In this document: one piece after another, positions 3,160 to 4,729 of the stretch
How positions within the stretch are numbered: the first letter of the stretch is position 1
How the letters are laid out: each line of letters starts with the position of its first letter
Assembly: GCF_003334385.1 (NCBI RefSeq)
Contig: NZ_QOWN01000039.1
Length of the DNA: 41,409 nt
Direction: 5' to 3' (one strand)
DNA from: Escherichia coli
GTDB taxonomy: Bacteria; Pseudomonadota; Gammaproteobacteria; Enterobacterales; Enterobacteriaceae
Made by a program: the position numbers and the translations under genes
Notes under the pieces: generated by a model
Seen by the model: only the letters and a program-made list of their open reading frames with translations
What the model was told of the DNA's origin: nothing
The model's database searches: none

Positions 3160-3633
3160 TTAATGCAGCATACCTTCATTCACTTCAAAGAGTAATTCTT
3201 CCATTTGCTGGTACGCATTTTCGCAGCCCGGAATATTGAACAACACCATCAGGATCACCCATTTCAGATCATCCAGTTCGAACTCTGCGTTATCCAGCGC
3301 GAGCACTCGCTCTATCACCATTTCACGAGTTTCAAGGTTGAGCACCTGAATCTGCTCAAGGAAAAGCAGAAACCCACGGCAGCTGGCATCCAGTCGTTCA
3401 CACTCTTCCGGTGTATAAATACGCATGGAGAGAGGATCCGAGGCCAGTTGCATCGGTTCTGCCAACCCTTCCTGATAATCAGCAAGTTTTTCCAGCCATA
3501 GCAGGGCATTGTAGATATCTTCTCGCTCAAAACCTGCGTCGGTAAGATCCTGTTCAAGTTTGTCTTGATCCACACGCAACTCAGCTTCTGTGTGAATATA
3601 GGTTTCAAACAAATACATTAGTACGTCGAACAT
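3160..3633 (-). CDS. smg: Smg protein (DUF494), 157 aa
   Basis: ORF 3160..3633, [13 protein letters not shown]-terminus; overlaps the smf 3' end by 29 nt. Confidence 0.85.
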
Positions 3634-4729
3634 GGCATGCCCTCCTCAATCGGACATAGCCGCCGGGTACAGCTGCGATCCATCCTGCTAACTCCAGTTC
3701 GAGTAGTTGAGTAACTACCTCTGGCACAGGTTGGCCGGCACGTTCAGCGACGACGTCAACAGGTGTTACCTCATCTCCTACGTTAGCCAGGAGCTCAGGA
3801 AATGGCAATGCCACGTCTTGCTGATCTGGTGAATAAAATGAATTTTCAGGGGCGTCTGGCAACCAGTGCAATCCAAATTGCAAGTTTTCCAGAATTTCTT
3901 CCGGTTCCGTCACAAGAATCGCACCTTGTTTTATTAACCAGTGAGGCCCTTCGCTTCCCGGATTCCCTATTGGACCTGGCAAGGCAAAAACTTCTCGCCC
4001 CTGCTCAAGCGCACAACGTGCTGTCACCAGCGAACCACTACGCAAAGCCGCTTCCACCACCAGTACACCTTTACTTAGACCACTGATAATGCGATTTCTT
4101 CGTGGGAAATTGTAAGCAAGGGGTGGAACATCGAGGGGAAATTCCGAGACGAGAGCGCCCCCCTGTTCAAGCAGACTGGCAGCCAGTCGGGCATGACGGC
4201 GGGGATGAATGGTATTAAGTCCATTCCCCAATACAGCAATGCTGACGCCATTTACCTGTAAGGCTGCTTTATGCGCTACACCATCGATTCCACGCGCCAG
4301 TCCACTCGTAATTGTCACTCCACGCGTCGCCAGAGTTTCGCAAAATAATCGTCCCCATCGCTCGCCATACCATGAATGCGCCCGACTCCCCACTACGGCA
4401 AGCTGAAATGAATGCAGCGCGTGCAGTTCTCCTTCAACAAACAGTGCGCCGGGGTAATCTGTCGTCGCCAGAAGTTGAGGAGGATAAAATTCGCTGTCCG
4501 CAGGAATTAAATGATGGTTGGGTTGCTCCAACCAACAAAGTGAGCTTTCGATACTCTTTCGTGGAAATGAAAGAAAGCGTTGTGCCTGCCGCAATGTAAG
4601 CCCTGTTTGCTGCAATACAACCGCATCAATATGCGACTGTTTTGCCACCCAGTGAGCGATACGGACCATATCATCGCCGTACAAGCTGCTGATACTCATT
4701 AAACGCAGCCAAATTTCTGTATCGACCAT
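3605..4729 (-). CDS. dprA: DNA processing protein A (DprA/Smf), 374 aa
   Basis: ORF 3605..4729; Rossmann-like DprA core; divergent from def. Confidence 0.85.

Follow-up and report, generated by a model that had tools for sequence, protein, structure and literature searches.

The 3' end of the Escherichia coli dprA (smf) gene probably houses the beginning of a second transcription unit. A promoter and a constrained leader of about 140 nucleotides (nt) appear to be embedded in the last part of its coding sequence and to have been frozen across the Enterobacterales. The gene lies in a stretch of 41,409 nt from E. coli (contig NZ_QOWN01000039.1 of assembly GCF_003334385.1), here called the window, where it is the first of six genes read from the minus strand, dprA-smg-yrdD-tsaC-aroE-yrdB, and faces the divergent gene def. 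The six genes form a nested, multi-promoter unit and not a simple operon.

Conservation of the 3' end of dprA

The conserved region occupies positions 3600-3812 (minus strand) and is ultraconserved at the nucleotide level. It comprises block A (3722-3812), a variable linker (3700-3721), block B (3634-3699) and the first smg codons. When dprA from 63 enterobacterial loci is aligned by codons, identity at third positions amounts to 0.8-1.0 over codons 307-374, as against about 0.45 over codons 1-300. Invariant columns make up 56 of 91 in block A and 44 of 66 in block B, compared with 2 of 160 in the sequence immediately upstream. In the seven neighbouring genes, third-position identity does not exceed 0.73 in any 20-codon window. 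Within the species, 5424 of 5426 E. coli genomes reach at least 99% identity over the whole block, whereas 3429 do so over the adjoining 213 nt.

Such a pattern could in principle reflect selection on the DprA protein alone, acting through a constrained winged helix and tail and perhaps through codon-level effects. Indeed, the block coincides with the Pfam domain DprA_WH (residues 311-357), and amino-acid identity over it is 0.96-0.99. However, protein constraint does not fix synonymous sites: def, with 91% amino-acid identity, peaks at a third-position identity of 0.73, and the catalytic core of DprA itself is far less conserved than the block at both levels. Moreover, a promoter-like motif marks the exact start of the block, which continues into the opening codons of smg. 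It is also retained where the protein is not. In Candidatus Steffania adelgidicola dprA has been lost, but the stretch from ATTGCCA to the smg ATG is kept, with indels that break the dprA frame, and in Pantoea sp. Nvir the block is kept inside a decayed, frame-shifted dprA. Since symbionts without an intact dprA keep the block, it appears to serve smg and the genes behind it, and not only DprA. Protein selection as the sole cause is thus quite improbable.

Dual coding was rejected as well, as the dprA strand has no long open alternative frame in the block: the frame of smg closes five codons (15 nt) ahead of the smg ATG, and the antisense frames offer only short stretches without a start. Between positions 3400 and 4900 no relevant Rfam 15 match was obtained at E<=10, so that the block could not be assigned to a known RNA family. 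The sole gathering-level Rfam match in the 41-kb window is Alpha_RBS (RF00140), at 13608-13719 on the minus strand. A hairpin that can be drawn for E. coli in the variable linker (3700-3721) was discarded, since inspection of the alignment by eye shows no clear retention of its stem in other genera. The searched literature contains no account of the frozen promoter and leader; for smf, smg and DUF494 it consists essentially of a single Neisseria paper (PMC5817196).

A candidate promoter inside dprA

The upstream edge of the block consists of an invariant ATTGCCATTT, an 11-nt variable stretch and an invariant TTGGCTAACGTAGG, which can be read as a sigma-70-type promoter, TTGCCA-N17-TAACGT. This candidate, P_smg, lies at 3780-3808 (minus strand), within the winged-helix coding part of dprA; its -35 hexamer TTGCCA (3803-3808) and its -10 hexamer TAACGT (3780-3785) are separated by a 17-nt spacer. 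Both hexamers are invariant and the spacer is variable. Of 83 loci, 76 have the exact pattern a single time and in the corresponding place; they include those of Vibrio, Photobacterium and Aeromonas, in which the same synonymous codons are retained at the promoter pattern. The motif is also the upstream edge of the sequence that Steffania has retained.

Two transcription start sites (TSSs) have been mapped within the cluster of Dickeya dadantii, one of them (4371503) 967 nt after the dprA start and the other about 30 nt before yrdB (PMC9239193). The first was placed with the help of the locus of Dickeya undicola, in which the def-dprA spacer is likewise 112 nt long. In the geometry of that locus it lies 138 nt upstream of the smg ATG, and it maps about 9 nt downstream of the TAACGT hexamer. 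By homology, the smg-to-yrdB transcript of E. coli would start on the minus strand within 3768-3774, at about 3771. The embedded promoter is the well-supported part of the proposal, the exact E. coli start being predicted from Dickeya.

A proposed leader of smg

The roughly 140 nt from this start to the smg ATG (3633) would serve both as the end of the dprA frame and as the 5' leader of the smg-to-yrdB mRNA. The leader would end in a predicted hairpin (GGCUAUGUCC / GGGCAUGCC; 3634-3661, minus strand), the loop and 3' arm of which hold the Shine-Dalgarno (SD) sequence of smg, GGAGG (3641-3645). The hairpin folds in E. coli, Yersinia and Edwardsiella. Among 27 sequences including outgroups, 79% of the alignment cells concerned are paired, against 28-50% in slid controls, and three pairs are double-changed; this hairpin is the best-supported element of the leader, with modest support across these sequences. 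An RNA 3' end located by Term-seq at genome position 3,432,463 (window 3632) coincides with the U of the smg AUG, 2 nt past the base of the hairpin; it was classed as internal in smf and as neither Rho-dependent nor intrinsic-terminator-like (PMC7815308).

Beyond the hairpin, an RNAalifold consensus of -39 kcal/mol encloses the SD sequence, the AUG and smg codons 2-4. Most substitutions in the leader are compatible with pairing, typically C/U opposite G, and GGA motifs can be read from the sequence both in the loop of the hairpin and some 35 nt upstream. A structured, possibly regulatory smg leader is plausible on these predictions.

The same features raise the question whether the block is a discrete functional RNA of about 140 nt (from about 3771 to 3632), or a leader that responds to a ligand, a protein or a small RNA (sRNA), which would govern how the smg-tsaC-aroE message is translated or how stable it is, or would act in trans. 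Conservation close to that of rRNA over the transcribed part would suit such an RNA, as would the defined 3' end at the smg AUG, which is neither Rho-dependent nor scored as a terminator, the fold that encloses the translation start with its mostly pair-compatible substitutions, and the GGA motifs. However, the block has no Rfam match and little real covariation, its thermodynamic z-scores are weak, the SD hairpin is the only structure common to the outgroups, and the 3' end could be a mere decay intermediate. This explanation seems unlikely. It is somewhat doubtful, too, that the leader is a novel cis-regulatory RNA, or the source of a stable leader-derived sRNA, that sequesters the smg ribosome-binding site and sets the expression of TsaC, an essential enzyme of t6A synthesis, and of AroE across the Enterobacterales. 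In this hesitantly advanced form the signal might be a protein, an sRNA, a metabolite or the ribosomes translating dprA, and the conservation of the winged helix would be largely a by-product of the RNA.

Three other candidates were unsupported by any test: a sigma-E-like motif, GAACTG-N16-TCGCA, in block B; a +1 frameshift giving a DprA-Smg fusion; and CsrA-type recognition of the GGA motifs.

Weighing promoter and leader as the source of constraint

The proposed mechanism is as follows. Transcripts from a weak dprA promoter, which would overlap the strong divergent def promoter and probably depend on an activator, would read through into the downstream genes, and the housekeeping genes would also be driven by the internal sigma-70-type promoter at 3780-3808. 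It is proposed that about 210 nt of sequence have been frozen across the Enterobacterales because of the double duty of this region, as the end of dprA and as a leader that closes with the hairpin holding the smg ribosome-binding site.

Several points weigh against this proposal. The E. coli internal start was placed by homology with Dickeya, the map of which may be uncertain by up to about 20 nt (PMC9239193). The TAACGT hexamer matches the -10 consensus at three of six positions, the mapped TSS lies 9 nt past it, which is on the long side, and a consensus promoter scan did not call TTGCCA-N17-TAACGT. In the fold of the leader, two of 44 pairs are double-changed and shuffled alignments have almost the same percentage paired, in tests that are limited because the approximately 140 transcribed nt are nearly invariant in Enterobacterales. 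Single-sequence z-scores are weak (-1.8 to +0.6), and apart from the SD hairpin no structure is held in common with the outgroups (consensus energy -1 kcal/mol). Ordinary 5' leaders are not known to be conserved to this degree, and that of def is variable in the alignment, so that a promoter and a leader alone do not explain near-invariance over 140 nt. Part of the constraint falls on the protein, since the block coincides with DprA_WH. In spite of these points, a nested unit whose promoter and constrained leader lie within the end of dprA is held to be the probable explanation.

Transcription of the cluster

In the preliminary description of this DNA, dprA was taken to head a housekeeping operon. 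As regards co-transcription, this view holds: gaps between the genes are at most 28 nt, and published long reads span the junctions in both E. coli and Dickeya. In E. coli, SMRT-Cappable-seq gave a capped transcript b4473-b3284-b3283-b3282, that is, dprA-smg-yrdD-tsaC (PMC6131387). In D. dadantii, a single unit smf-smg-yrdD-tsaC-aroE-yrdB has been described, with five of five junctions validated by native long reads and a primary TSS 92 nt upstream of dprA (PMC9239193).

The existence of a single start, however, does not agree with the same maps. The E. coli data also contain a capped smg-yrdD-tsaC-aroE-yrdB transcript that starts inside dprA (PMC6131387), two internal TSSs are present in Dickeya, and the internal motif is conserved. 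RegulonDB, as used in two papers, divides the cluster into three separate units, dprA, smg and yrdD-tsaC-aroE-yrdB. Because internal starts give the smg-to-yrdB transcript, dprA is not the only head. Separate promoters isolating dprA from the genes downstream, which the preliminary description had named as the observation that would speak against its operon, are therefore found in part (the smg-to-yrdB transcript, the Dickeya internal TSSs and the RegulonDB division), alongside read-through from dprA.

A simple six-gene operon, with one promoter in the dprA-def spacer and strict co-expression of competence and housekeeping genes, would fit the shared direction of the genes, their short junctions, the Dickeya unit with every junction validated and the E. 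coli dprA-smg-yrdD-tsaC transcript. It is nevertheless improbable in view of the capped smg-to-yrdB transcript, the Dickeya starts that precede smg by about 138 nt and yrdB by about 30 nt, the RegulonDB division and the symbiont Steffania, which retains smg-tsaC-aroE without dprA. It also counts against strict co-expression that tsaC is essential, while dprA is poorly expressed and induced by Sxy.

Further Term-seq 3' ends on the minus strand lie at window 3425 in smg, at 2967 in yrdD (scored Rho-dependent) and at 2093 in tsaC, 86 nt before aroE, and a Rho termination region of an antisense transcript lies at window 3457 (PMC7815308). The ends in smg, yrdD and tsaC point to more internal processing or termination in the unit. 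Published sigma-network tables have no entry for these genes.

Origin of the dprA/smg overlap

The two genes overlap by 29 nt (3605-3633, minus strand), smg being in the +1 frame relative to dprA. This overlap, recorded in the preliminary description, is read directly from the sequence, and its length of 29 nt does not vary among enterobacterial loci whose dprA is intact. Codons F9-E10 of smg, which belong to the nearly invariant YLFE motif, contain the dprA stop TGA (3605-3607). The arrangement differs in 13 outgroup loci (Aeromonas, Vibrio, Photobacterium and Alteromonadales), where the dprA stop precedes the smg ATG by 2-8 nt, except in one locus with an 8-nt overlap. Because dprA ends just before the smg ATG in these outgroups, the overlap is, judged by this comparison, a derived state that arose in the ancestor of the Enterobacterales. 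The ancestral stop, as in Vibrio (...GGC TAG), was lost and DprA gained about ten residues (HVRRTNVFV), the sequence of this tail being set by the smg reading frame. With that stop gone, reading would have continued to the TGA inside the YLFE codons, where constraint on both smg and the leader would have fixed the new dprA stop. The overlap is a lineage-specific frozen accident, with no regulatory design.

It could be argued that the overlap is an artefact of annotation, with Smg starting at Met6 (window 3618) or DprA ending earlier, and several database entries, in some Erwinia and Mixta, do annotate a Smg of 152 aa. This is very improbable. When E. coli Smg is aligned with 34 distant homologues, which a search of 1.84 billion representative proteins supplied, its first five residues (MFDVL) match conserved positions and L5 is nearly invariant. 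GGAGG stands 7 nt upstream of the first smg ATG, which is the correct spacing. A start at Met6 would still leave a 14-nt overlap with dprA, and the position of the dprA stop is fixed in all Enterobacterales.

Several Vibrio species carry ATGATGATG at the start of smg, which amounts to three successive possible start codons (loci L073 and L078-L080, at about 5995-6006). In these loci the dprA stop TAG directly precedes the three possible starts.

The dprA-def spacer

The 129-bp spacer between dprA and def (4730-4858) contains the def-fmt promoter (4784-4818, plus strand), with a -35 hexamer CTGTCA at 4784-4789 and a -10 hexamer TAGAAT at 4808-4813. Its TSS has been located by SMRT-Cappable-seq at 3,433,649 of NC_000913.3, which is window 4818 (PMC6131387), and lies 5 nt past the TAGAAT found by consensus scan. 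Across 19 enterobacterial genera the spacer has two invariant blocks, which are the -10 and -35 regions of def. The 12-mer GATTGACAGCAT (dprA strand, 4781-4792) is invariant in these genera. It covers the def -35 region and carries, on the strand opposite to def, a perfect TTGACA, and its conservation goes beyond the need of a 4-of-6 -35 hexamer. This TTGACA (4785-4790) was rejected as the main -35 of dprA: it lies downstream of the dprA TSS as carried over from Dickeya, and the def -35 is covered by the invariant 12-mer as well.

In Dickeya, the TSSs of dprA (4372562) and def (4372544) form an overlapping divergent pair (PMC9239193). Both were carried to E. coli through the spacer alignment, which places the def site at 4820, against 4818 measured. 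The dprA promoter would accordingly occupy 4838-4873 on the minus strand, with a -35 hexamer TTGCAA at 4868-4873 (def codons 4-5), a weak -10 hexamer CAGAGA at 4846-4851 and a TSS at about 4838. The predicted -10 reads CAGAGA in E. coli and TAGATC in Dickeya. On this alignment, the 5' ends of dprA and def would overlap by about 20 nt in E. coli. Such a weak, probably activator-dependent dprA promoter fits the literature on low dprA expression.

A competence-type regulator site in the spacer had been suggested at the outset, and none is evident in 4730-4858. Pattern search and alignment found a single TGCGA in the spacer, a lone half-site at 4766-4770 on the plus strand, which lies downstream of the predicted dprA TSS and is not conserved outside Enterobacteriaceae sensu stricto. 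An inverted repeat, CAATC-N5-GATTG (4759-4773), encloses this half-site, is conserved in the same group only and could be a binding site for some factor. The CRP-S pattern TGCGA-N6-TCNCA, with one mismatch allowed, has no match in the spacer and fewer in the window than expected by chance.

The CRP-S motif of E. coli is described as one conserved TGCGA half combined with a degenerate half, with class-I-like action (PMC6728893). A candidate of this kind, CTT-TGCGA-AGCCGC-TCGTC-CGG, is found on the minus strand at 4886-4907, in def codons 10-17 and centred about 58 bp upstream of the predicted dprA TSS; judged by the number of such matches, it is not significant. TGCGA is completed there by CTT, a non-preferred codon for Leu, which most Enterobacteriaceae retain and Yersinia, Serratia and Pectobacterium do not; conservation of this key synonymous position is confined to Enterobacteriaceae sensu stricto. 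It has been stated in general terms that Sxy induces all competence homologues of E. coli (PMC3330819).

E. coli plasmids carry, with 100% identity, a 64-nt piece (4813-4876) from the promoter and early codons of def; a 4.5-kb query around the dprA locus has 344 plasmid places in all. On pUTME-8-2 the piece lies between tsh and an IS1A element, and it looks like chromosomal DNA carried along by IS1.

Gene content and distribution of the cluster

The 4.5-kb query is 100% identical to an E. coli K-12 MG1655 derivative, and window positions are converted to NC_000913.3 coordinates by adding 3,428,831. Gene calls follow the RefSeq annotation (the MG1655 derivative and NC_000913.3) and NCBIfam equivalog models. 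The dprA region is present once in each complete E. coli genome (5426 of 5426). In strain L6-21 (NZ_CP123963.1), an IS1A interrupts an otherwise identical region (900-5400), so that the match falls into two pieces.

The gene dprA (3605-4729, minus strand; RefSeq, NCBIfam, Pfam) encodes 374 aa that match NF008007 over the full length (705.8 bits, cut-off 495) and TIGR00732 with 295.6 bits. Its Rossmann-like core (DNA_processg_A, 68-274) is flanked by SAM_SMF (1-65) and DprA_WH (311-357), which places it in the DprA/Smf family. The product of smg (DUF494, PF04361; 3160-3633, minus strand; 157 aa) matches positions 1-157 of the 157 of NF002897 with 292.7 bits and has the N-terminal DVLMYLFE motif, as expected for a member of its family. 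YrdD (2589-3131, minus strand; 180 aa) has zinc ribbons of the TopA C-terminal type. Because its NCBIfam matches are confined to the C-terminal zinc-ribbon region of topoisomerase I models and fall well under their cut-offs, YrdD is, as far as the sequence tells, a TopA-like fragment protein and no topoisomerase. Further along the minus strand come tsaC (yrdC; 2012-2584), for L-threonylcarbamoyladenylate synthase (NCBIfam NF007919 and annotation); aroE (1189-2007), for shikimate dehydrogenase (NF001310, TIGR00507); and yrdB (DUF1488; 935-1192), from the annotation and the list of open reading frames. The divergent def lies at 4859-5368 on the plus strand (RefSeq, NCBIfam), and yrdB converges with yrdA (plus strand), their 3' ends overlapping by 25 nt (935-959).

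These identities, the gene order and the divergent def agree with the preliminary description. Its 4-nt gaps between the later genes exist between yrdD and tsaC and between tsaC and aroE, whereas smg and yrdD are 28 nt apart and aroE and yrdB overlap by 4 nt (ATGA). Gene order and overlap are already known and ordinary.

One genome per species was scanned with the Smg alignment, which gave 80 loci. The order dprA, smg, topoisomerase-I-type gene, on one strand, is kept in the 80 loci as a conserved cluster, and fmt-def (divergent)-dprA-smg-yrdD-tsaC-aroE-yrdB is common to all Enterobacterales, from Escherichia to Yersinia, Hafnia and Edwardsiella. In the outgroups (loci L069-L081), def and dprA are separated by an additional gene of about 1.2 kb, yrdD and tsaC by other genes amounting to 0.6-1.9 kb, and tsaC and aroE by about 1 kb. 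Because the outgroups carry these intervening genes, the tight six-gene cluster represents enterobacterial compaction. The endosymbionts Candidatus Steffania adelgidicola and Pantoea sp. Nvir, in which dprA is lost or degraded, are both without yrdD. They retain smg, tsaC and aroE as well as the conserved block upstream of smg (loci L066 and L046, positions 5700-6010).

Relation to known systems

The closest described counterpart is the dprA-smg-topA operon of Neisseria meningitidis, found also in other beta- and gamma-proteobacteria, in which, as in E. coli, dprA and smg are followed by a topoisomerase-I-type gene; the three genes are co-transcribed and a promoter has also been predicted in the middle of dprA (PMC5817196). 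The E. coli cluster differs in having yrdD, with zinc ribbons only, in the place of topA, in its extension by tsaC-aroE-yrdB and in the 29-nt overlap of dprA with smg.

A second comparison is with the gamma-proteobacterial competence regulon of Sxy/TfoX and CRP (CRP-S; PMC1635313, PMC6728893). The E. coli dprA is the orthologue of a CRP-S-regulated Haemophilus gene and has a TGCGA-type site nearby, but the E. coli dprA-def spacer appears to hold no good site, and the best candidate would lie inside def. Because the downstream genes would have their own promoter, they need not belong to this regulon.

Complex nested transcription units have been described on a genome-wide scale in E. coli and Dickeya (PMC6131387, PMC9239193), likewise with an internal TSS in an upstream open reading frame, overlapping isoforms, and read-through combined with independent expression. 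Unlike the usual internal promoters, the promoter and leader described here are frozen at the nucleotide level across an order. The 3' end at the smg AUG (3,432,463) is itself listed among the E. coli Term-seq ends within open reading frames or 5' untranslated regions (PMC7815308).

The frozen promoter and leader are a modest but concrete new lead, of a kind that is known from internal promoters and nested units. The position of housekeeping genes behind a nearly silent, Sxy-induced gene seems paradoxical, and the paradox would be resolved by the internal promoter and leader. Indeed, the final 200 bases of a competence gene appear to drive both tsaC, an essential gene of tRNA modification, and the shikimate gene aroE; they belong to a stretch of 210 nt that is as conserved as a structural RNA and for which no function has been described. 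Deletions or recodings of dprA that remove its 3' end may be polar on smg, tsaC and aroE. Moreover, the amino-acid conservation of the enterobacterial DprA winged helix should not be taken to reflect protein function alone.

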